Source: Planctomycetota bacterium (lineage in GTDB: Bacteria; Planctomycetota; GCA-002687715; DRQF01). From it: a DNA stretch of 23,435 bases. A program made the translations under genes and the position numbers. Below are positions 2,034-21,253 of the stretch, in pieces (position 1 is the first letter of the stretch; every line of letters begins with the position of its first letter). Location: the NCBI GenBank assembly GCA_027001995.1, contig JALTLO010000044.1, forward strand, positions 1-23,435. Reading direction: 5' to 3'. The notes under the pieces were generated by a model. That model did not search any database, was not told where the DNA came from, and saw only the letters and a list, made by a program, of their open reading frames with translations.

Positions 2034-3173
2034 CTAAGAAATCTGATCGCTTTTGAGGTTTTGTTGCCAAAGGCCTCGGACGCCTTTGGTGGCGTTCGCT
2101 AAGTCTTGGGTGGTGTAGCTTTTTCCTAGGTGGGGGGTGTCGTCCCCGAGCCACTGGATTCGGCCAAGCCTCAACAATTCTTCGTGAATTTTCTCAACTC
2201 GTCTACGAAGGCGCTTGGGACCAAAATGGTTCCTGAGATATGTGCCCCAGGCCCGACTCACTTTCTTGGATGTAAGCGTTACACCTGCGGGAACCAGGGT
2301 AGGATCGCCTTGGTGAAGTGGGCGATTCACATCAAAAACATACACAGGTTTGTTTGTTGAGCAAGCCTCCGCCAACATTGAAATGCTCTCTGCCGTGACA
2401 ACGAAGGCATCTGCTAAGGCCAAAAACGCAAGATAAGGATTCTGGGTCCCAGGGGCGTCGGCGTCAAAATGGAATTGGGGCACATTGATTTCGCTCAAGA
2501 AGAATGGCAAAGCGCCCTTGGGTGTTCTGGCGCTGGACGAGATGAGCAGAGACCCCTTGTTGTTCTGTGCCAGTTGACTGCTGTCGCGAGCGAGTTTCTG
2601 GATTGCAGCAGCGTTGTAGCGGCAGGTAGCACTATCGCCGCCAATGAAAACCCCAGTCCATGGGCGGGGCAAATGAGAGAATGTCGCTTGCCAGCTCTTT
2701 GCAGCGGTTTTCAAGACTCCTTGGTTGATGCGGTGAAGGGGGAGCTTGTTGACCAGGATGTTTTCGGCGTTGCCCAGATCATACTGAGGGGTTGTGATGA
2801 TGAGGTCGAAGAATTTTGGGTGCGCCCATGGACGACCCAAATGGACCAATTTGCATCGGCCATTCGTTTGTCTACGAATCCATCGGGCAACTGGTTCGTT
2901 TCGCCTTCCGGCGGAAATGACAAGATCAGGAAAAGGTGGAGTCATGGGGGCCGACTCCTTCCTTTTTAGACCTGCGAGTGTCACCTGCAAAAGGCGATTG
3001 GGGATGATCTCCAACTCTATGTAGCGCAGGTTCTTTTGGACACAGCGCCAACCCAGAGAATCGGCCAAGGCCAAGATTTGATTGTTATCACCAATCTTTT
3101 GGCCTAGAAGCGCCCAGATGAGGGGATCGTTGGGTATTCCGTCGCAACTTGTTGTCTCGGGCTCATCACTCAT
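2034..3173 (-). CDS. ELM1/DUF1022 family protein (putative nucleoside-diphosphate-sugar-related)
   Basis: 379-aa ORF with IWALLGQKIGDNNQ, PPFPDLVISAGRRNEPVARWIR, FDLIITTPQY, VFIGG, SSSARTP, NPYLAFLALADAFVVTAESISMLAEAC. Paralogous to the C-terminal domain of the convergent gene. Confidence 0.85.
   Translation of the reverse strand: MSDEPETTSCDGIPNDPLIWALLGQKIGDNNQILALADSLGWRCVQKNLRYIELEIIPNRLLQVTLAGLKRKESAPMTPPFPDLVISAGRRNEPVARWIRRQTNGRCKLVHLGRPWAHPKFFDLIITTPQYDLGNAENILVNKLPLHRINQGVLKTAAKSWQATFSHLPRPWTGVFIGGDSATCRYNAAAIQKLARDSSQLAQNNKGSLLISSSARTPKGALPFFLSEINVPQFHFDADAPGTQNPYLAFLALADAFVVTAESISMLAEACSTNKPVYVFDVNRPLHQGDPTLVPAGVTLTSKKVSRAWGTYLRNHFGPKRLRRRVEKIHEELLRLGRIQWLGDDTPHLGKSYTTQDLANATKGVRGLWQQNLKSDQIS
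2393..2414. repeat. 22-bp perfect inverted repeat, copy 2 (partner at 1556-1577)
   Basis: Direct base-by-base comparison with 1556-1577. Confidence 0.9.
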
Positions 3174-3321: not shown

Positions 3322-4995
3322 ATGCAGATCAGACCTACAACATCCAACGAAGACCTCATGTTCCTGAGGGAGCGTGTTGTGAGCATGGCACGATTGGCTA
3401 GCATATTAGCCATTTTCATGCTCGGGGTTGTGGCCTTGATCGACCTCATGGAAGAAGGAAGAGTGGCCTGGGAGAAGCCGGCGAAGTGGTGGCAGGCGCT
3501 TGGCAGTGGTGTCCTTCTGTTGGTCTGGGTGGTCAATTCTCGGTGGCAACTTTCGCGACGGGGGATCCGTCTGAGCGAAGGTGCTGGCCTCGTTTTTTCA
3601 ACTTGGGCTTTTGCCATTATGACTTGTCAAATGTCCCCAGCTCAGTCGCCTCATATGGCCGCCTTGATGGCCGCCACCTTGATTGCTGTTCTGCGGGCTG
3701 TTTTTGTCCCCAGCAGTCCTCAGCGCACACTTCTACTGGGACTTGTACAAGGCATCCCCCTCATAGTCATTATTGTCTACTTCTATCGGTCCGCTTCTCC
3801 GGGGGATATGGAGGATCTGCGATTGAGTTTTGAAGTGGAGGACGCTCAAGACGTGGCCGGAATTCTGGGGCCAGTCGCCGCTGGCTGGTGGATAGCTTCC
3901 ATGGCAACAGCAACGGCGGCAAGCCATGTGATCTATGGTTTGCGGCGTCGGGTGCGGGAGATTCGTCATCTTGGGCAATATGCTCTTCAAGAGAAGTTGG
4001 GAGAAGGTGGGATGGGGCAGGTGTTTCGTGCTAGTCACGCTATGCTCCGGCGACCGACTGCGGTGAAACTCTTGGCATCGTCAAACATCTCTCCAGGTGA
4101 CATTCAGAGGTTTGAAAAAGAAGTCCAGTTGACCGCTTCTTTGTCCCATCCCCACACAGTGACGGTCTATGACTACGGAAGAACTCCCGATGGTGTGTTC
4201 TACTATGCCATGGAATTGATTGAAGGAGCTACCTTGGGGGAGATCGTTCAGGTGAGTGGTCCCCAAGACCCAAGAAGGGTAAAACACATTTTGGCTGCCG
4301 CTTTAGGAGCCTTGGCTGAAGCACATGGAATTGGCTTAGTACATCGTGACATCAAGCCAGCTAATATCATGCTCAGTCAGATTGGCGGAGCTTACGATTT
4401 CACCAAGGTGCTCGACTTTGGGTTGGTGATGGAAGTGGTTCACAAGGAACTCTCTACATTGGCTTCTGAAGTCGGAGATGTGACTGTCGCTGGGACTCCC
4501 CTATATATGGCCCCCGAGTCATTTGAGGCAAAGGCCACGATCGACGGTCGTACAGACATTTATGCCTTGGGAGCCGTAGCCTACTTCTTGTTGACAGGGA
4601 CCCACGTTTTCGACGGCAAAACAGTCGCTGAAGTGGCCTCAAGGCATTTGAATGAATCCCCTGAACCTCCCAGCTCACGCTTGGGATCTCAGACGAATTT
4701 CCAATTAGAGGAGTTTGTTCTCCTTTGTCTTGCCAAAGACCCCAAACGACGGCCAGATTCTGCTCATGAGGCCTTGGATCTTGTTCGGTCCATTGAAATG
4801 GGAGAATGGACGACTCGAGATGCTCAAGAGTGGTGGCAAACTTTTGGATTTGCCGTGGCTGATGGACGAGAAAAATTTGGAACCAAGGACATGGAGTCCC
4901 AGTCAACTGTCGGCTTTTTAGACTCGCAAGCAACAATTACCCTTGGAATGGACCGCAAGAGCTCCTTTTTAGAGGGCGATGGCGGAAGTTCATAG
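3322..4995 (+). CDS. Serine/threonine protein kinase (Hanks type) with N-terminal multi-pass membrane domain
   Basis: Several hydrophobic segments in the first ~205 aa, then LGEGGMGQV, AVK, HRDIKPANIM, DFGL, GTPLYMAPE, DIYALG. Confidence 0.93.
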   Translation: MQIRPTTSNEDLMFLRERVVSMARLASILAIFMLGVVALIDLMEEGRVAWEKPAKWWQALGSGVLLLVWVVNSRWQLSRRGIRLSEGAGLVFSTWAFAIMTCQMSPAQSPHMAALMAATLIAVLRAVFVPSSPQRTLLLGLVQGIPLIVIIVYFYRSASPGDMEDLRLSFEVEDAQDVAGILGPVAAGWWIASMATATAASHVIYGLRRRVREIRHLGQYALQEKLGEGGMGQVFRASHAMLRRPTAVKLLASSNISPGDIQRFEKEVQLTASLSHPHTVTVYDYGRTPDGVFYYAMELIEGATLGEIVQVSGPQDPRRVKHILAAALGALAEAHGIGLVHRDIKPANIMLSQIGGAYDFTKVLDFGLVMEVVHKELSTLASEVGDVTVAGTPLYMAPESFEAKATIDGRTDIYALGAVAYFLLTGTHVFDGKTVAEVASRHLNESPEPPSSRLGSQTNFQLEEFVLLCLAKDPKRRPDSAHEALDLVRSIEMGEWTTRDAQEWWQTFGFAVADGREKFGTKDMESQSTVGFLDSQATITLGMDRKSSFLEGDGGSS

Positions 4996-5278
4996 TTGCA
5001 AAGAATTCAAAGGAAAATGGCTAAGAGAGCCCGTTTTCTCGAATTGGGGCGTTTTTTCACGAAATGAACCAGGCAATTCGTACGTTAAGTAGTGAGCCTG
5101 TCTCCAGTTGAATGCTCGTTTTAGCCATGAGTTTTGGCCCCAGGTTGCAAAATACTCCCGGGCGGGTTTGACCACATGAATAATATCAAGGGGCTGCGTA
5201 GCACGAACCGAGCCTCTTGGTGTAGGATCAGTTTCCGGTCGGTCGCTAACCGACTATCAATTAGTTTTGGAGAAAACG

Positions 5279-6220
5279 ATGAAGAGAATCGTGGGAGTCC
5301 TAGCAGGACTCTTGTTGTTGGCTTGTGCCGTTTCGGCTCAATCTCAGCAAGAAGAAATGCAGGCCAATTATGACAAGAAGCTCAAGAAAGACTTCATGTC
5401 GAAAGTCAGTTGGGAAAGGGATTTCGCAGCCGCCAAGGCCAAGGCTGCAAAAGAGAACAAGTTGCTTTTGGCATACTTCAGCCGAAGTTACGCCCCATGA
5501 CCACCCTGCAATCAACTAGAGGGGGGTCCCCTTCTACAAGACTGGTGGGTAGCTGCAGCTAAAACTGTTGTCCCTTACATCAATATCACGGCGAGACTCA
5601 GTACGGTTCCCGATCAGGATTTGCTCGAAGAGAAAGGGGGAAGAGGATTCCCCTATTTCACTCTAATGAACAGCAAAGGTGATGTTGTTTGGGAGTTTTG
5701 GCCAGCAGACAAAGCGGCATTTGACAAAGCTTTCAACGCAGCCACATTACTGGTTGAGTTGCAAACGAAAGCAGCAGCGAAACCAGAAGATAAGGCTTTG
5801 GCCGCCGGCGTCAAGTTGCTCGATCACTTTGGGCGCGAACAACGCAAAACTTCGCTCAAAGACGAAGAAATCAAGGCTTTGGGGGCAACGAAAGGTCTTG
5901 ATGACCGGGTCGTGACCCAATTCAAAGCTTGGGAGAACGACAAGAAGCTCATGGATGCCCTCCAAAGCACACGTGCTGATGGGGGCGAAGGGGCCTTGAA
6001 GCTCTTTAAGGAGGGCACGGAGGTCACCGGTCGTTTGGCATTGCCATTCTACTATTGGGTTGTTCAAGGTGCGATCAAAGGGAAAGACGCAGCGAATGGC
6101 ACAAAGGCACTCGACCTCTTCATCAAGGCAGGCTCCAGCCGCAAGGATTTTGCTGAAAGAGCCAAGAAAGACATCGATGCTATGCGCGCGAAGCTCAAAG
6201 AGATAAGCGCGGGGAAGTAA
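5279..6220 (+). CDS. Exported thioredoxin-fold selenoprotein (UxxC, Sec74), 313 aa, with helical C-terminal extension; requires UGA read-through at 5498-5500
   Basis: GGAG at 5269-5272 precedes the ATG at 5279, followed by a signal peptide (MKRIVGVLAGLLLLACAVSA). The protein reads WERDFAAAKAKAAKENKLLLAYFSRSYAP-TGA-PPCNQLEGG. The 40 codons after the TGA are stop-free and join ORF 5621..6220 in frame, including the cis-Pro loop GGRGFPYFTLMNSKGDVV. A SECIS-like hairpin follows the TGA. Confidence 0.85.
5498..5548 (+). promoter_or_regulatory. Bacterial SECIS-like element directly 3' of the in-frame UGA
   Basis: Upper stem UAGAGGGG (5517-5524) pairs with CCCUUCUA (5529-5536), 8 bp with one G-U. 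The apical loop is GGUC (5525-5528), 24 nt after the UGA. A possible lower stem is CCACC (5501-5505) with GGUGG (5544-5548). Confidence 0.75.
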
Positions 6221-6382: not shown

Positions 6383-8101
6383 CTAAGAACCAACGGTCGT
6401 TTTCTTGGCGCCGCCTTTCTGGGACTCGAAGTAAATTTCCAATGGCCCTTCGCCGGCGATAATCCACTGAAACTGTCTTCTACTTTTTGACCCCACTCCT
6501 GACTCGAGGCGAAGACGACCCGGGTCATTCGGAATGATTTTGTTTGTTTCGTTGTGAGCTGGGCCGCTGACTTCCATAGCAGCGATGATTTCTTGAGATT
6601 CCCTTAGTCTGATTCCCAAGAAATCAGGGAGTCCAATGCGCTTTTGAGCAGCCAAGGCCGTTCTGGTTGGGATGAGAGCATTGTTCGTGACTGTGACGCG
6701 AACTGTGCGGGTTTTCTCGGTGGGCCCGGAGCGCATTTCAGCGTTGAGCGTAACCCTGGGCATGTGCTCAGCTTGATTGAGCGTAAATATGGCATTGCGA
6801 TGACAAGTCTCCTCCAGCATGAAGCGTGGGTTGACCCGGCTACTTTCTTTTGTCCATCCACCGATTTCGATGTCGCCATATTGAGGATGTTTGTATGGCT
6901 TCCATTCTCGGTACAACGATCCCATCATGACTAAGTCGTTGAATTCTCGCCTGGCGTTGCGATTGCGCTCTTTGGTATGGAAACGCTGAGATTCGCTCCA
7001 GAGTTCGTTGGTGAAGCTAATAATTCCAAGAGTCTCAGCAGCGAAATTGACGAATCCGCCGTGGACGGTGTAGAGATCTTTGAAGAGTACCATGTAGCGG
7101 TAGAAAGGAAGAATTTTGGCACCTTCTTTGCCGATGGCATCATAAACCCGCAGGTCCGCTCGTGGGTATTCTGAGACATAGTCGGCCCCAGGTCCACGCA
7201 AGATCATCCCCCCTGCATTGTGATAGCTTTGAACGGATGCGATGTTGGGATGATTGAGGAGGAAGTTGCCAACGCTCCTCGCTTCCGGTTCGGAGAAAGG
7301 ATAAGGGCCTGCACCATACTGGACATAAGGTGGGCGCCAGTCCGCCGGATTATTTCGATTCATGTCATACCCACCGGGACCGTCTTCGTTGAGACGACCG
7401 TCGTGGTCATCATCGATCCCTTCCGAGCCCAGAAGAACATAGTCGCCGCTTTCACCTGCTTCGACGCGAATGAGGAAGCGATCATCTTCTGGGTCGGTTT
7501 TGTGGGTGCCGTTCTTCTCAACTTTCTTACGCATCCGCAGAATATTGCCGTCTCCATCCAGGTCATTGGGTGGATCTTCATCGAGTAAACCGTCTCGATC
7601 ATTGTCGATTGGCCTTTGACCCGACCGAGAACTGGACGACGTATTCCCCTGGTGAAGCCAAAAGTCTCGGCCATCGGGATTGACCGTGGGGGCGATGTAG
7701 AAAACCTTCTCATCGACCAGCTTAGTTACCCTTTCGATCTCGCCGTAGTTTTCGAGCAGATACCAAATCGTGTAGAGGCAGACTTCTGCGCCTTGGACTT
7801 CGTTGCCATGGATGTTGGCATCGATGTACATTGCGGCTTTTTCGTTTTCTGGGCCGGTTTTTCTGTTTTGCAAGGTGAGGACCCACATCTCTCGTCCTTG
7901 GAAACTCTTACCCATGGACCCAACGTCAACAAATTGGGGCCAAGTGGTTTTGAAGCGTTGCAGTATTTCGCCGATTTCTTTGTGGTCGTAATAGCGATTG
8001 AACGCCAGCTCCATTTTAGGTGCCGAGGTGTCGGCTGTTTGGGACCAAGTTGATGATGCGCAGAGGAATAGGGAAAACGCTAAGAAGAGGAGTGATTTCA
8101 T
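6383..8101 (-). CDS. Secreted M14 family zinc carboxypeptidase (catalytic motifs intact), 572 aa
   Basis: Start placed at the ATG at 8101 (signal peptide MKSLLFLAFSLFLCASSTWSQ), overlapping the upstream stop as ATGA. Motifs: NIHGNE (HxxE), VNPDG, DMNRN, SEPE, SYHNAGG (third Zn ligand), TNELW (catalytic Glu), plus DxDxDG loops. Confidence 0.9.
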   Translation of the reverse strand: MKSLLFLAFSLFLCASSTWSQTADTSAPKMELAFNRYYDHKEIGEILQRFKTTWPQFVDVGSMGKSFQGREMWVLTLQNRKTGPENEKAAMYIDANIHGNEVQGAEVCLYTIWYLLENYGEIERVTKLVDEKVFYIAPTVNPDGRDFWLHQGNTSSSSRSGQRPIDNDRDGLLDEDPPNDLDGDGNILRMRKKVEKNGTHKTDPEDDRFLIRVEAGESGDYVLLGSEGIDDDHDGRLNEDGPGGYDMNRNNPADWRPPYVQYGAGPYPFSEPEARSVGNFLLNHPNIASVQSYHNAGGMILRGPGADYVSEYPRADLRVYDAIGKEGAKILPFYRYMVLFKDLYTVHGGFVNFAAETLGIISFTNELWSESQRFHTKERNRNARREFNDLVMMGSLYREWKPYKHPQYGDIEIGGWTKESSRVNPRFMLEETCHRNAIFTLNQAEHMPRVTLNAEMRSGPTEKTRTVRVTVTNNALIPTRTALAAQKRIGLPDFLGIRLRESQEIIAAMEVSGPAHNETNKIIPNDPGRLRLESGVGSKSRRQFQWIIAGEGPLEIYFESQKGGAKKTTVGS

Positions 8102-9843
8102 GGGAGTACGATTTCCTTCGTCAATGGGCTGGTGTGCGCAGGGGAGAGATGCAAATGAATGGAGTCTCCGGATCTCCCTTTGAGCAGCCATTGGTATTTT
8201 TTGCGGCCAGACTTGGCTTCTAAGGAGGCGATGGTGTGTCGCCGTTGACCACTGAGGAGAGATTCTTTTGTGACTTCCAAGATGAGAAGGTCAGATGGAG
8301 CAAAGCGATTGAAAGTGTTTTGCTTTGTTTGACTCGGGTGCTCTCCTTCGTTGATCACCCAAGCCTTGAGCTCGAACAACCCTTCAGTGAGTTGCTTGCA
8401 TTGGACATCGCCGAGGTTGAGGCGGGCTGATCGACTCAGGAGCAAAGATAGGATCGGAAATTGTCGGTTGACCATCGAAGGAATATGTTCAGGTGCTGGG
8501 TTATCCCGGTAGAACGGTTTCCACCCGCCAATTTCTATTTTCCCCAGAGTTGGGTGAAGAAACGCTTTCCAAGGGCTGATACCCTTTTGCTTATTCTCTT
8601 TGGATGACTTGGGTGTGGATGGCTGTGAGGTGAAGGAGGAAGTGGGTTTCGTTGTTGGTTGACTGCTGGGATTCCTTTTCTTCGTTGTGGGCTGGGCGTT
8701 CTCTTTTGGTGTGCCAGCATCAAAAAGGTTGATTGCGGCGCTGACCAAACCCAATTGATAGTAAGTCCAGTCCTCGAAACTACCGGAGATGGATTGCACT
8801 CTTGATTGGGCGCACGCTTTGGATTCATGGGCTAGGTCGTGAATTGGCTCCAAGAGTTTTATGTCTTCACTGTGATATTGGGTGACTTCTGAACGCCGGC
8901 GAAAGGACTTTTGTTTTTGCTGTTTTCCGGCCATAGGAAGCGTGTGAATGTTGTCATGGCTCCCGTAGACCAAGACTGTTTCGATCCAAGGTCGAGCCAA
9001 TACAAAGTCGGCCAATGCTCGACTAGCCGGTTCGCTGACCGCATGTGGCCCGCTGGGGAGGTGGTGCTCCTGAAAGCCATGGGGGAAATTTCTGTCCAGG
9101 CGAACGCCGCAATTGGGGTCTTCCCCAAATGATCCATCATTGTCTTGATCTAAGGCTTCTGGAAAGACTCGATAGACGCCTCTTTCACCTTTGCTGGCAT
9201 CCGCAAGTCGCATGAGCCCCTTGTTTTCGGGATCGTCGATCCAAGTGCCGCTGAGATGTCTCTGGCGCATTTGAGTGATGATGCCATCGTGATTGAGGTC
9301 AACGGGGGTGTCTTCGTTCAAGGCACGGCCGTCACGGTCCCAGTCGATGGCTCTGGCATTGCCTAACTGTTCTTGGGCAGGACCACTTGCGAAGTATCGT
9401 TCGCTGCCATCCAAGTCAACTCTTGGAATGAAGATGAGCATGCGTTCGCCCAACGTTTGCGCCAGAGGCTCCAGTTCCAGGTTGGCGATTTTCTCAGCCA
9501 AACCCAGGATGACAGAACTTCCGATTAAAGAGTTGGACTCAAGTCCGGACACTACGAGAAGTCCGGATTTCCACATGGCCCGGGGTTGAATGTTGATCGG
9601 CCAGGCTTGGCGGGATTTTTGTCGCGGCACACACATGGTGAGGGCCAGGATCTCTCGGCCTTCTCCGGTCTTGCCTATGCTGGTGATTTCAATCTTGGCG
9701 TTGGAGTCTCTTGCTGCCAGCTGGCGCATGGCAGCATTCAGATTGTTTGCCTTCAAGTAAGAAAATCGGGGAGGAGATTGGGCGTGACTCAAGGTTGCGA
9801 AGAGGCAAACAAGAGTCATGCCGAAGATGTTGTGTTTGTTCAT
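8098..9843 (-). CDS. Secreted M14 carboxypeptidase-like protein with degenerate zinc and catalytic residues
   Basis: Signal peptide and colinearity with the downstream M14 gene (SIGKTGEGREI, DLNHDG, LDRNFP, SEP, HPTLGKIEIGGW). HGNE is replaced by ESNS, SYHN by VYGS, and NELW by INLF. Confidence 0.82.
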   Translation of the reverse strand: MNKHNIFGMTLVCLFATLSHAQSPPRFSYLKANNLNAAMRQLAARDSNAKIEITSIGKTGEGREILALTMCVPRQKSRQAWPINIQPRAMWKSGLLVVSGLESNSLIGSSVILGLAEKIANLELEPLAQTLGERMLIFIPRVDLDGSERYFASGPAQEQLGNARAIDWDRDGRALNEDTPVDLNHDGIITQMRQRHLSGTWIDDPENKGLMRLADASKGERGVYRVFPEALDQDNDGSFGEDPNCGVRLDRNFPHGFQEHHLPSGPHAVSEPASRALADFVLARPWIETVLVYGSHDNIHTLPMAGKQQKQKSFRRRSEVTQYHSEDIKLLEPIHDLAHESKACAQSRVQSISGSFEDWTYYQLGLVSAAINLFDAGTPKENAQPTTKKRNPSSQPTTKPTSSFTSQPSTPKSSKENKQKGISPWKAFLHPTLGKIEIGGWKPFYRDNPAPEHIPSMVNRQFPILSLLLSRSARLNLGDVQCKQLTEGLFELKAWVINEGEHPSQTKQNTFNRFAPSDLLILEVTKESLLSGQRRHTIASLEAKSGRKKYQWLLKGRSGDSIHLHLSPAHTSPLTKEIVLP

Positions 9844-17324: not shown

Positions 17325-18134
17325 ATGAACAAAAGACAAAATCTCCCCCTCGCTGCTTTAGTTTTTTGCGTCATGATTGGCACCATTCCCGGGTGCGGAA
17401 GTGACAGTGGCCGCAGCAAAAGGAGCGTTATCGACATGACTTGGTCTGGGGGACGGGGATATTCGACAGACTACAATCGTAGCCGTGATCGTTACCGAGG
17501 CTTGGTGCAACAAATTCGTCTGTATGATGAAAAATACTATGAAAGTCACGTTCGCACGGAAGATGCCAATGGCAATCCCATCAAGCCTGTTGAACAAGTA
17601 GTCTTCACCGAATCCAAGGCAAACGTCCCCGTCAAGTCGGTCACCACTGCCGGTGTGAAGTCGAAGACTGAGCAAGGGAAGGGAGGTGCCGTTTTTCTAG
17701 ACGCCAATCGCAATGAAGTCCGCCTTGATGACTATCTGGGCAAACCTGTTGTTCTTGTCTTCACGCGAGGATTCCCAGGTTACATTTGCCCCATGTGCAC
17801 CACATACACAGCTCAAATTACCGTCGCTCACCAAAAGTTCAAAGATGCCGGGGCAGAGGTGCTCATTGTCTTCCCAGGAGAGGCATCTCAAGTGGATGAG
17901 TTTATTGATGCTTGCCAGCAAATAGCAGAAACGGATGAGGTCTTGCCTTTCCCGATTCTCATTGACCCAGATTTGGCTGCAGTGAAGGCCTTCAATATCC
18001 GTGCTGATCTTTCTCTTCCAGCAACTTACATTTTTGACAAGAACGGCGATATCGCTTGGGGTTTTGTTGGCGAGCAACCTCACCAACGCCCCAGCGTTGC
18101 TGTGCTTCTTGAAGAAGTTAAGAAACTCAAATAG
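17325..18134 (+). CDS. AhpC/TSA (peroxiredoxin-like/redoxin) lipoprotein with CxxC
   Basis: Lipoprotein-like signal ending IPGC. VRLDDYLGKPVVLVFTRGFPGYICPMC (CPMC at 17787-17798), FPILIDPD, PATYIFDKNGDI. Confidence 0.85.
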   Translation: MNKRQNLPLAALVFCVMIGTIPGCGSDSGRSKRSVIDMTWSGGRGYSTDYNRSRDRYRGLVQQIRLYDEKYYESHVRTEDANGNPIKPVEQVVFTESKANVPVKSVTTAGVKSKTEQGKGGAVFLDANRNEVRLDDYLGKPVVLVFTRGFPGYICPMCTTYTAQITVAHQKFKDAGAEVLIVFPGEASQVDEFIDACQQIAETDEVLPFPILIDPDLAAVKAFNIRADLSLPATYIFDKNGDIAWGFVGEQPHQRPSVAVLLEEVKKLK

Positions 18135-18139
18135 GTCTA

Positions 18140-21100
18140 TTGCCTGTGTCGAACGACAAAACAAACGATGACGCCGACCAAAACGACGAACCGGATCTGA
18201 CAATCTCGACTTCAGGGACCAATGCTTCAGTCGAAGACGATTCCGCTAGTTACGCCAAGACTGTTCGTCATGAGATTCAGCATGTGAGCAAGACAGTCGT
18301 CTCGACCAATACGGATATCGTCGAGGGCTATCAGATCATCTCTATGCTGGGTGAAGGCGGGATGGGTGTTGTCTATCTCGCCAACCAGCGGAGCTTGAGT
18401 CGAAGAGTCGCCTTAAAGCTGATGAAAGACATGGGCGACGATGAGTCTTTCGTTGCTCGGTTTCGTCGAGAGGCAATCACGGGAGCAAGGCTGAATCATC
18501 CCAACATCGTCAGTGTCTATGACCACGGGCATATCGAAGGGAAAGTTTTCTTAGTTCTTGAATACGTCAAAGGTCGCAATTGCAGTGAATTGATTGAACA
18601 GACCGGGCGCTTCCAGGTCAAGACGGTTTTGGAGATCATGCGTGGCTGCGTTCTTGGGTTGAGCCACGCCGAGAAACTTGGGGTGATTCATCGAGACATC
18701 AAACCCGCTAACATTATGATCTTGGAGGAAGAAGGCAGTGATGCCCGCCGCAGTACCAAAGCTCATCCAAAGATTGCTGACTTTGGTCTCGCTCGTCTTC
18801 ATGATCGAGATGATCCGGAACATATTGATCTGACTCAAACCGGAAGCATCATGGGCACCCCCGGATACATGGCACCGGAACAGGCCTTGGGTCATGAGGT
18901 TGATTTTCGGGCCGATATCTACAGCTTGGGCTCAACGATGTACTGCCTCTTGACGGGTAGCAAACCCTTTACCGGAGCTACTATGGTTGAGGTCCTCCAC
19001 AAGAAACTGAATGAACAAGCGCCCAATCCTCAAGATCTGGTCGGGGAAATCAGCAATGAAGTGATCTTGGTCTTGGACCGTATGATGGCGAAAAAAAGGG
19101 AAGATCGCTATCAAACCTATGAGGACCTCTTGATCGATTTGGAAGCCCTCATTGATGGCGAAGTTCCAAAAACGAAAGGTCTGGAACTGCTTGCGAGTAG
19201 CTTGGATGTGGGTGGCCTTGATACGCGCAAGAAGCTAGGAAAAGGTAAAACCCCTGGAGGTCGAGGGAAGAAGGCAAAGATTCTTGCCGTGGTGGGGGGA
19301 GTCGCTCTTGCTTTGGGAGCAGCTTGGGTGGTATGGCCTGCAGAGAAGGAAGTCCCCGCTGTTGTTTCCCAAGATCCCAACGTTGCCAAGCTCAATGCAC
19401 TCTTAGAGGAATGGGGAGGCGATTCCCCTGGGATCTATTTTTCTGCTCTTGAAAGGCGTTCCGTACTCTTTGACGAGGAGTTAAAGCGAGTTTCGGGGAA
19501 TGATGAAAAGACAAGGCTTGAGGAGGATTTTCGCACAATTCTGGCTGATAAATTGGCTCGAAACGAAGATTTTGTGCTGAGTCCCCTCGAGGCCGATTGG
19601 AAGGCCCGGAAGTGGAAGAGTATGGCTCTCGCTTGCGGCATCCTGAAGGGGCACTACCAACAAGCTGGCCTGAGCATACCTGCTCGTCTTAGTACTCTGG
19701 ATGAGTACGCCGGACAAGCGCAGCTCGGAAACATGGCAAAGGTAGAAGAAGAAGCCATTGCCAAGTTGATGAATGCGGAGCCAAGCAAGGCCACCTTAGA
19801 CGAGCTATTGGCCTTTTCCAACCGATTTCCGTTTAGCCCTAGTCTGAGTTGGGTGAAGCAAGAGATTCTTCGGATACAGCCTCTGGTGAGGGCGGCGGAG
19901 CAGAGTAGGCCGATTCGATTGGACTCCGTTTGGGATCAACTCGTTGCCCAATCACCTAGGGCTTTTATCGAGGCCTATACAAAAATGGGAGATGAATGGA
20001 AAAGGGAGCTCGCTGACGTTCCCAGTTCAAAGCGCAAGAATGCCGAGGAACGTTTAAGGGAACTTCTTAAGGACAATGGGGAGCTGGTCATTGCCGAAAC
20101 AACAACGTTTCTCACTCAATTGTGGACTACGAGGGATTATGTTCGGCTGCGGGCTCTCTTGGACGACTCTGCAACTCTTATCAAGAGGATAGGTCTTGAA
20201 GAGCCAGAATCTTGGGAACAGTTTCATCGGGTCGCTTCAGCTTCGAAAGATCGTTTGGGTCTTCAAGAAAAAATGGCATGGAAGGCTATCACGTCAGAAA
20301 AGGATGCCCTACTTCGTGTTCAACAACTTGAAGATTACATAGCGGAGTTCGCCTCATTCTCACCGACCATAGATGCTGCCCGATCCATGTATGCTGCGGA
20401 TTGCAAGAAAGCGCCCGCCTTGATCTTTGACGTGGAACCTGAGAGCGCATCGATCACTGTTAACGGCATTCAACTCAAGAAGAGTGATTGGAACGGTCAC
20501 CATTTGCCCGAAGACTTAGAGGTGTCCATTACTGCTCCTGGATATTTCGAGTCTAAACACGAATTGTCGCATCAAGGGGAAAAGACGGAGTTGATCGTTA
20601 GGTTGATCAAGAAGTCAAGGAACGATGTTTCGATTGACTTGAGCAAGAACGCCAACGTCCCTCTATCTGTTGACCCGCGGAATTCACGCAAGTCACCATT
20701 TCCTTTTGCTAAGGGTCTTCAACAGGGGGTCGCAACGGAAGAGGCGGGTTTACGTGTTGTCACGGTGGACAAGAAAAGAAAGAAATGGTGGTCAACTTCC
20801 CGCAGTTTGTTTGACAACATGATTGGCAAGGTCGTTTTCCCTCAAGGTGAAGAACATTTTTGGCAATTGCATGGACGTTTGATTCACCAAGAAGGCGCCA
20901 TGGAAGTGCGGCTTTTGAATGCTGCTGACGACCGTTCGGTGGTTCTTGGAATTCATCTCAATAGTGATGGCAAGAAAGAGTTCTACTTTGGTGAACGCCA
21001 GGACAAGAAGCTTGATGTCACTTATAAGGCTCCCATTACCAACAACGAGAGCGCCATTCGTTTTTCATTGTCTTGGTACGGTGATATCTGTGTCTTGGGT

Positions 21101-21253
21101 GTTTGTGATACATTAGAAGGGCACCCGGCAAAGGCCCGGATCTTGGCCTCGATTAATTATCTTCATCCGCTTGGCAAGCCCCAATCCATTGCATTGGCTG
21201 CCAGTCAAGGGGGAGGCATTTTTGCTGAACTGAAGCTTTACCCGATGCAGTGA
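18140..21253 (+). CDS. Serine/threonine protein kinase with a single TM and a large extracytoplasmic region including a PEGA-like domain
   Basis: LGEGGMGVVY, VALK, HRDIKPANIM, DFGLAR, GTPGYMAPEQ, DIYSLG. TM segment ILAVVGGVALALGAAWVVW. PEGA-like DVEPESASITVNG...VSITAPGY. The TTG start is uncertain. Confidence 0.92.
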   Translation: MPVSNDKTNDDADQNDEPDLTISTSGTNASVEDDSASYAKTVRHEIQHVSKTVVSTNTDIVEGYQIISMLGEGGMGVVYLANQRSLSRRVALKLMKDMGDDESFVARFRREAITGARLNHPNIVSVYDHGHIEGKVFLVLEYVKGRNCSELIEQTGRFQVKTVLEIMRGCVLGLSHAEKLGVIHRDIKPANIMILEEEGSDARRSTKAHPKIADFGLARLHDRDDPEHIDLTQTGSIMGTPGYMAPEQALGHEVDFRADIYSLGSTMYCLLTGSKPFTGATMVEVLHKKLNEQAPNPQDLVGEISNEVILVLDRMMAKKREDRYQTYEDLLIDLEALIDGEVPKTKGLELLASSLDVGGLDTRKKLGKGKTPGGRGKKAKILAVVGGVALALGAAWVVWPAEKEVPAVVSQDPNVAKLNALLEEWGGDSPGIYFSALERRSVLFDEELKRVSGNDEKTRLEEDFRTILADKLARNEDFVLSPLEADWKARKWKSMALACGILKGHYQQAGLSIPARLSTLDEYAGQAQLGNMAKVEEEAIAKLMNAEPSKATLDELLAFSNRFPFSPSLSWVKQEILRIQPLVRAAEQSRPIRLDSVWDQLVAQSPRAFIEAYTKMGDEWKRELADVPSSKRKNAEERLRELLKDNGELVIAETTTFLTQLWTTRDYVRLRALLDDSATLIKRIGLEEPESWEQFHRVASASKDRLGLQEKMAWKAITSEKDALLRVQQLEDYIAEFASFSPTIDAARSMYAADCKKAPALIFDVEPESASITVNGIQLKKSDWNGHHLPEDLEVSITAPGYFESKHELSHQGEKTELIVRLIKKSRNDVSIDLSKNANVPLSVDPRNSRKSPFPFAKGLQQGVATEEAGLRVVTVDKKRKKWWSTSRSLFDNMIGKVVFPQGEEHFWQLHGRLIHQEGAMEVRLLNAADDRSVVLGIHLNSDGKKEFYFGERQDKKLDVTYKAPITNNESAIRFSLSWYGDICVLGVCDTLEGHPAKARILASINYLHPLGKPQSIALAASQGGGIFAELKLYPMQ

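Follow-up and report, generated by a model that had tools for sequence, protein, structure and literature searches.

In bacteria, selenocysteine insertion sequence (SECIS) elements are described as hairpins with a stem of 6-8 bp, in whose loop a conserved G lies some 20 nt after the UGA. SelB binds them via its winged-helix domains WHD3-4, with a hinge that tolerates varied spacings (parts of PMC4605307 used here). In the fdhF gene of Escherichia coli, the upper stem-loop begins 11 nt after the UGA (PMC8659212, in the sections drawn on, and the fdhF sequence), and the bulged U17 and the loop bases G23/U24 are the critical bases contacted by SelB (same sections of PMC8659212). The fdhF sequence of strain MG1655 (TGA CAC GGC CCA TCG GTT GCA GGT CTG CAC C) carries GGUC at the apex, as stated in an earlier note on the DNA studied here, and its loop is 18 nt away from the UGA. 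A comparable hairpin occurs at positions 5517-5536 of a 23,435-nt stretch from a Planctomycetota bacterium (contig JALTLO010000044.1, forward strand), the whole of which is referred to below as the window. To judge from its sequence and that of its homologues, this hairpin is very probably the SECIS of the exported thioredoxin-fold gene at 5279-6220, bound by SelB and causing an in-frame UGA to be read as selenocysteine (Sec). In terms of classification it is a genuine, canonical SelB-type SECIS, an element of a known kind, within an unannotated selenoprotein gene.

The hairpin is located on the + strand and comprises the 5' arm UAGAGGGG (5517..5524; positions 2-3 of the L80 codon, E81 and G82), the apical loop GGUC (5525..5528; the G83 codon plus position 1 of P84) and the 3' arm CCCUUCUA (5529..5536; P84 positions 2-3, L85 and L86). 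Its stem of 8 bp, one of them a G-U pair, starts 16 nt after the UGA at 5498..5500 (+ strand), the predicted selenocysteine codon U74, and 24 nt separate this UGA from the loop. The coordinates and description of the hairpin in the earlier note were thus correct. The consensus bacterial SECIS (bSECIS) model behind bSECISearch is given in PMC13188914 (Fig. 2 legend, the portion of the source used) as a four-part constraint set: a loop of 3-9 nt with a G as first or second base, a stem of 4-16 bp, a spacing of 16-37 nt and an energy of at most -7.5 kcal/mol. In such elements the loop G usually has another G or a U behind it. We applied these constraints with a stricter script of our own, in which a contiguous stem of at least 5 bp was required. 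The window hairpin violates none of them, having a loop of 4 nt that starts with GG, a stem of 8 bp, a spacing of 24 nt and an energy of -10.5 kcal/mol, and it lies within the coding region directly 3' of the in-frame UGA, in the single frame 5279-6220. The earlier proposal that the codons for L80-E-G-G-P-L-L86 double as SelB-binding RNA is borne out in that they form a conserved RNA hairpin within all bSECIS constraints; SelB binding and selenium incorporation we infer from sequence.

Similar to the fdhF element of E. coli, the hairpin is part of the coding sequence, directly follows the UGA and exposes GGUC in a small apical loop. In contrast to fdhF, its 5' arm has no bulged U corresponding to U17, the 8-bp stem being unbroken, and its lower helix is not conserved. 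The distance from UGA to loop is two codons longer (24 versus 18 nt), and the stem starts at 16 instead of 11 nt. By analogy, the hairpin would act as fdhF-type SECIS do, and it falls within the general bacterial model, without being a copy of the E. coli element and outside a narrow fdhF-type definition.

Proteins with one in-frame TGA were searched in the order, which is equivalent to the whole class (23 genomes), and in a sample of the phylum (401 genomes). The family occurs in 19 of the order's 23 genomes and in 105 of the 401 phylum genomes, often in several copies. Some genomes carry tandem arrays of this thioredoxin-like family, with three copies on G240:C29 and four on G339:C262. A related-locus search of genome contigs with the single protein yielded no confirmed locus. 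Ninety-nine loci were fetched and anchored on the query protein by tblastn, and 103 gene copies span residues 70-90; three loci were left out, two for lying at contig ends (L016, L033) and one for having no alignment over the site (L056). The codon aligned with U74 is TGA in 88 of the 103 copies, TGC in seven and another codon in eight; the TGA forms come from 74 genomes and the non-TGA forms from 14. Tested against the constraints above, 83 of the 88 TGA genes passed, compared with one of the seven Cys genes and two of the eight others (3/15 non-TGA genes in total). The passing TGA genes contain 57 distinct hairpin sequences with stems of 5-10 bp and with GU in the loop of 55 of the 83, and the spacing from UGA to loop is 23-25 nt in all but one (82/83). 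As a measure of specificity, 40 of 1157 coding-like in-frame TGAs of the genome pass the same filter, true selenoprotein genes included.

The strength of the hairpin also follows the TGA. The 31 nt at +14..+45 fold with a mean energy of -13.03 kcal/mol if the gene has TGA, compared with -8.86 for Cys and -9.34 for the remaining genes. In a 31-nt sliding window the TGA genes show a single dip, to -12.8, at +12 (elsewhere -3 to -8.7), and the non-TGA genes show none, with -8.05 at +12. Synonymous codons were permuted within each gene, which keeps both the protein and the codon usage (200 shuffles per gene). Under this permutation the mean energy of the TGA genes rises from the native -13.03 to -8.77 kcal/mol (mean z -1.71), and in 22 of the 88 at most 5 of 200 permutations are as stable as the native sequence. 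The non-TGA genes are left unchanged (z -0.12 for Cys, z -0.44 for the others).

Covariation was assessed on a DNA alignment (A1) of 86 distinct TGA sequences, in which no insertions or deletions occur in the 51 nt from the TGA on; because it is ungapped and anchored by the protein alignment, A1 is independent of any structure. In the main register, 86.4% of the cells pair, compared with 76.5% in column shuffles (0/500 reach the native value), and 53 cells carry double changes versus 24.3 in the shuffles. The comparison of TGA- and Cys-containing homologues proposed in the earlier note favours recoding, with compensatory changes among the TGA genes. Stem variants among the homologues include GGAGGGG/CCCCUCC, GGAGAGCG/CGCUCUCC, CUGGAAGC/GCUUUCGG, CGAGAACG/CGUUCUCG and others, and pairing is preserved through synonymous as well as amino-acid changes. 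Three pairing registers are in use among the 83 passing hairpins (45, 10 and 27 genes, with one hairpin elsewhere), since the runs of G and C permit slippage.

The apex is conserved, with G at offset 28 in 82 of the 88 genes and U at offset 29 in 61. At the loop Gly codon, GGU is used in 48 of 73 genes (66%), compared with 145 of 1060 other Gly codons (13.7%) of the same genes. In the Gly codon before it, the third base (nt26) covaries with the base that opens the codon after the loop (nt30): G-C occurs in 27 genes, C-G in 17, C-C in 11 and G-G in one, and the C-C cases mostly belong to the other register. The synonymous sites of the hairpin are under selection, and theirs is the cleanest of the covariation signals. 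The hairpin bases code for the last part of helix alpha-1 together with the loop behind it (E81-G-G-P84), and the apex falls in the G83 codon. Residue 82 is Gly in 60 of the 88 Sec forms (otherwise Ser 17, Ala 5, Arg 4 and Asn 2) and in none of the 15 non-Sec forms, which have Lys, Asp, Arg, His, Ser, Gln, Ala or Asn. This distribution suggests that the RNA requirement sets residue 82, and hence the protein seems to be shaped by the RNA at this point.

The genome (5.2 Mb, 92% complete) encodes a complete Sec machinery. Its selB scores above the curated cut-off (334 bits) and includes a SelB-wing_3 domain, the SECIS-binding winged helix (60.7 bits); selA (511 bits) and selD (357 bits) adjoin a tRNA-SeC(tca). 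The three genes selA, selD and tRNA-SeC stand in a row at C148:21750-24413 of this genome (G000). The selD gene carries an in-frame TGA of its own at the canonical G-G-U site (S-S-G-G-U-A-A-K-L), followed by the hairpin CGCUCAA/GUC/UUGAGCG with its loop 33 nt after the UGA. Long ORFs (open reading frames) of the genome end most often in TGA (1033/2423), which indicates that no general reassignment of the codon has taken place. Eight more genes among the 40 hits of the SECIS filter have their TGA at a catalytic motif and within a Pfam domain: four AhpC/TSA-Redoxin genes (W-U-G-P-C), a Thioredoxin_7/DsbH gene, MsrA, an FdhA-type molybdopterin oxidoreductase (S-R-A-U-H-A-P) and a CMD/AhpD gene (C-H-Y-U). 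They are located in G000 at C105:26845-28008 (L112), C43:32366-33550 (L125), C138:5404-6633 (L128), C76:34702-35817 (L127), C68:54417-55184 (L114), C27:3793-4632 (L118), C197:62473-65244 (L124) and C22:50954-51577 (L126). Counting selD and the gene studied here, the genome likely contains at least ten selenoprotein genes.

The loops of these eight hairpins are GGUC in three, GGUCU in two, AGUU in two and GUU in one, 18-31 nt from the UGA. As in the window, a small GU loop follows an in-frame UGA (GGUC or GGUCU in five), while the spacing varies between 18 and 33 nt once selD is included and the stem sequences are unrelated. The presumed SelB ligands of the genome hence share a small GU loop, and the hairpin studied here fits among them. 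Two FG-GAP propeller proteins of the same genome, L116 (C49:25262-28249) and L123 (C105:3371-4462), also have an in-frame TGA and then a GUU-loop hairpin; their motifs are L-K-D-T-U-S-V-Y-W and N-N-W-U-C-I-G, and one of them combines UnbV_ASPIC with a C-terminal thioredoxin-like part. Pfam places the TGA of L116 and L123 at no known active site; both are possible propeller-thioredoxin selenoproteins. Across the phylum sample, selA scores above the curated cut-off in 285 of 401 genomes, and selenocysteine use is very common in the phylum. By hand comparison, selA is present in 100 of the 105 genomes with the family, a figure of little power given that 290 of 401 have it anyway. In the host, the C-terminal winged-helix domains of SelB would bind the hairpin via its GGUC loop, and SelB would deliver Sec-tRNA(Sec) to the UGA 24 nt upstream of the loop. 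The codon would then be decoded as selenocysteine (U74 of the redox motif U-P-P-C) and not as a stop.

The predicted coding sequence (CDS) of the thioredoxin-fold selenoprotein (313 residues) extends over 5279..6220 of the + strand, stop codon included, as derived from the read-through translation and from homologues that align across the TGA. Gene callers break it at the TGA into 5267-5500 and 5621-6220, two ORFs in the same frame with a single TGA between them. Inspection of the sequence points to GGAG at 5269..5272 (+ strand), 6 nt ahead of the ATG at 5279, as the likely ribosome-binding site. The read-through translation starts with a hydrophobic leader and places U74 within S-Y-A-P-U74-P-P-C; the codons for MKRIVGVLAGLLLLACAVSAQ (5279..5341, + strand) likely encode a signal peptide, judging the translation by eye.

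A structure of the read-through protein was predicted by AlphaFold with an alignment of 33 sequences (A2), resulting in a pLDDT (predicted local distance difference test) of 94.1 and a pTM (predicted template modelling score) of 0.84. In the model, residues 63-69 form a strand, U74 opens helix 75-81, and a loop (82-87) and another helix (88-94) come next; the thioredoxin domain reaches to about residue 140 and a helical domain covers 145-312. Foldseek matched the model with YbbN-type proteins (E 6e-5), DsbH (TMt 0.64, root-mean-square deviation 2.9) and DsbD-gamma, and the family profile matched DsbH 2ju5 with an E of 1.9e-8. A thioredoxin fold whose helix 1 begins with the redox motif is shared with DsbH, DsbD-gamma and YbbN (CnoX)-type proteins composed of a thioredoxin and a helical domain. 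The features expected of a UxxC thioredoxin-fold selenoprotein were found: the fold in the model, U74 at the N-terminal motif position and TGC at this codon in seven homologues. UxxC is the motif given for many catalogued selenoproteins in Table 1 of PMC13188914 (the part of the source used), and it is common to the present family and to the catalogued UxxC 'thiol:disulfide interchange protein' selenoproteins (PF13098). The family here, in contrast, has no matching NCBIfam model.

When the single protein was searched against NCBIfam and PDB sequences, no match exceeded the threshold, none of the NCBIfam selenoprotein models came near its cut-off (best NF041383, 18.7 bits versus a cut-off of 275), and Pfam Thioredoxin_7 stayed below threshold for the 313-residue protein. 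The C-terminal helical domain of 170 residues affiliates with no family. Public protein collections hold the gene and its relatives (P0001-P0005) only as unnamed C-terminal pieces of 184-248 residues, P0001 having 184 aa; this restriction to C-terminal pieces is an annotation artefact of the TGA. In the open-access literature we found no paper on the thioredoxin-like family in Planctomycetota, a search which did not cover the supplements of PMC4807772 (S9 Table, planctomycete selenoprotein candidates). Export of the protein and a redox role are deduced from the leader, the motif and the modelled fold.

Several results weigh against the interpretation of the hairpin as a SECIS. Folding of 5498-5560, suggested in the earlier note as a check, places the hairpin in the minimum-energy fold (-19.9 kcal/mol), as does folding of 5470-5600. 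The energy, however, is no better than that of dinucleotide shuffles of the 63 nt (mean -19.87 kcal/mol, z -0.01; 83/200 at least as stable), and a second dinucleotide-shuffle comparison was equally without signal (z -0.58), because runs of G and C pair in any order. The hairpin alone has -10.5 kcal/mol and the 31-nt window -11.2 kcal/mol, and synonymous-codon shuffles of the window's own gene give a z of only -1.5, with 18/200 as stable. As the folding energy alone does not exceed chance, the case is based on the comparison of homologues. A cmscan of 5300-5800 against Rfam (E up to 10) returned no SECIS family and three unrelated matches at chance level. The basal helix that the earlier note considered possible, CCACC (5501..5505, Pro-Pro codons) with GGUGG (5544..5548, Trp-Trp codons), both on the + strand, does pair in the window, yet it is not conserved (50.9% of cells pair versus 48.7% in shuffles), and CCACC is probably incidental. 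In the covariation analysis, a structure moved by two columns scores nearly equal to the main register, and the single consensus of RNAalifold is weak (5 pairs, -3.93 kcal/mol), being blurred because the helix uses three registers. Moreover, the homologues are related, so that shuffle counts and the binomial and Fisher P values overstate independence and the effect sizes are what counts.

The most direct competitor to a SECIS is a hairpin that arises as a by-product of the peptide L-E-G-G-P-L-L, whose codons are complementary (GAG/CUC, GGN/NCC), with no function of the RNA and with any recoding left to another signal. The weak energy signals of the window's own gene would agree with this, and so would the synonymously shuffled TGA genes, which still reach about -8.8 kcal/mol at the site; part of the stem therefore comes free with L-E-G-G-P-L, where GAG faces CUC and GGN faces NCC. 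Two non-TGA, non-Cys homologues also pass the SECIS filter, and the Cys homologue L017, from a genome with selA, retains a 7-bp hairpin of -16.3 kcal/mol (8/200 shuffles). In L017 (G005 C5:288553-292191) the site, at locus position 1675, reads S-Y-R-P-C-E-P-C and the hairpin UCGAGCG/CGGAC/CGCUCGA, which may be a relic of a recent change from Sec to Cys or a product of chance. Against such a by-product, z stays close to 0 in non-TGA homologues whose peptide is similar (L-E-D-G-P-L, L-E-H-G-T-L), and a qualifying hairpin is missing from 12 of the 15 non-TGA genes. Conversely, the hairpin is retained with different peptides (L-E-A-A-A-L-S, L-E-S-R-V-L-S), and third positions are biased toward pairs and toward the loop U, as seen in the excess of GGU and the covariation of nt26 with nt30. 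We consider a mere by-product of the peptide very unlikely.

A functional hairpin could also act without SelB, for example by slowing the ribosome or release factor 2 at the UGA like a roadblock and so promoting near-cognate read-through, or as an element of mRNA stability or regulation. Nothing specific speaks for this, although a stem-loop 16 nt past a stop could in principle affect termination, and C directly follows the UGA in 70 of the 88 genes. UGA followed by C is a weak termination context in E. coli. The features conserved among the homologues are nevertheless those of SelB ligands, namely the small loop with its G (82/88) and U (61/88); selenoprotein genes elsewhere in the genome that are unrelated to this one, FdhA and SelD among them, have the same GU loops after the UGA, and the full Sec machinery is at hand. 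Such a SelB-independent role is very improbable. Finally, the TGA could be a true stop or a disabling mutation, making 5267-5500 and 5621-6220 two genes or a pseudogene and the hairpin irrelevant. Public protein sets with only the downstream piece P0001 and similar truncated forms would accord with this, as would the rank of TGA as the commonest stop. However, 88 genes from 74 genomes share the TGA at exactly this codon, the sequence being conserved on both sides, and seven homologues have Cys there. In the predicted model, the read-through product forms a single thioredoxin domain, in which U74 takes the active-site position. A genuine stop at this codon is almost certainly the wrong explanation. 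The hairpin thus remains best described as the SECIS of a selenoprotein gene.

Other genes of the window include a kinase gene at 3322-4995, just upstream of the selenoprotein gene, and a second kinase gene downstream: a Cys-type AhpC/TSA-Redoxin gene (17325-18134, +) is followed after 6 nt by a gene for a Ser/Thr protein kinase of 1037 residues (18140-21253, +). At one end of the window, two adjacent convergent genes (2-2023, + and 2034-3173, -) both match Pfam Mito_fiss_Elm1 (PF06258; 207 and 201 bits). Two neighbouring M14 zinc carboxypeptidase genes are located at 6383-8191 (-) and 8098-9843 (-), their listed ORFs overlapping by 94 nt; the true start of the downstream carboxypeptidase gene is probably later than listed.

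For the mechanism of Sec insertion, this element holds nothing new. Its consequences concern the gene and its family. The 'hypothetical' ORFs 5267-5500 and 5621-6220 would together be one selenoprotein gene, truncated by public annotation. No NCBIfam model exists for the family, present in about one quarter of the sampled phylum genomes, and annotation pipelines consequently miss it. With 88 UGA and 15 non-UGA forms on one codon alignment, the comparative set shows the mutual constraint of a SECIS and the peptide it encodes. We lean, with modest confidence, towards a broader interpretation, in which this is a phylum-wide, uncatalogued family of exported selenoproteins whose SECIS dictates the alpha1-alpha2 loop and slides among three registers with the apex G-U 25-26 nt after the UGA. 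The constraint on both the RNA and the protein would then be released once Sec is replaced.

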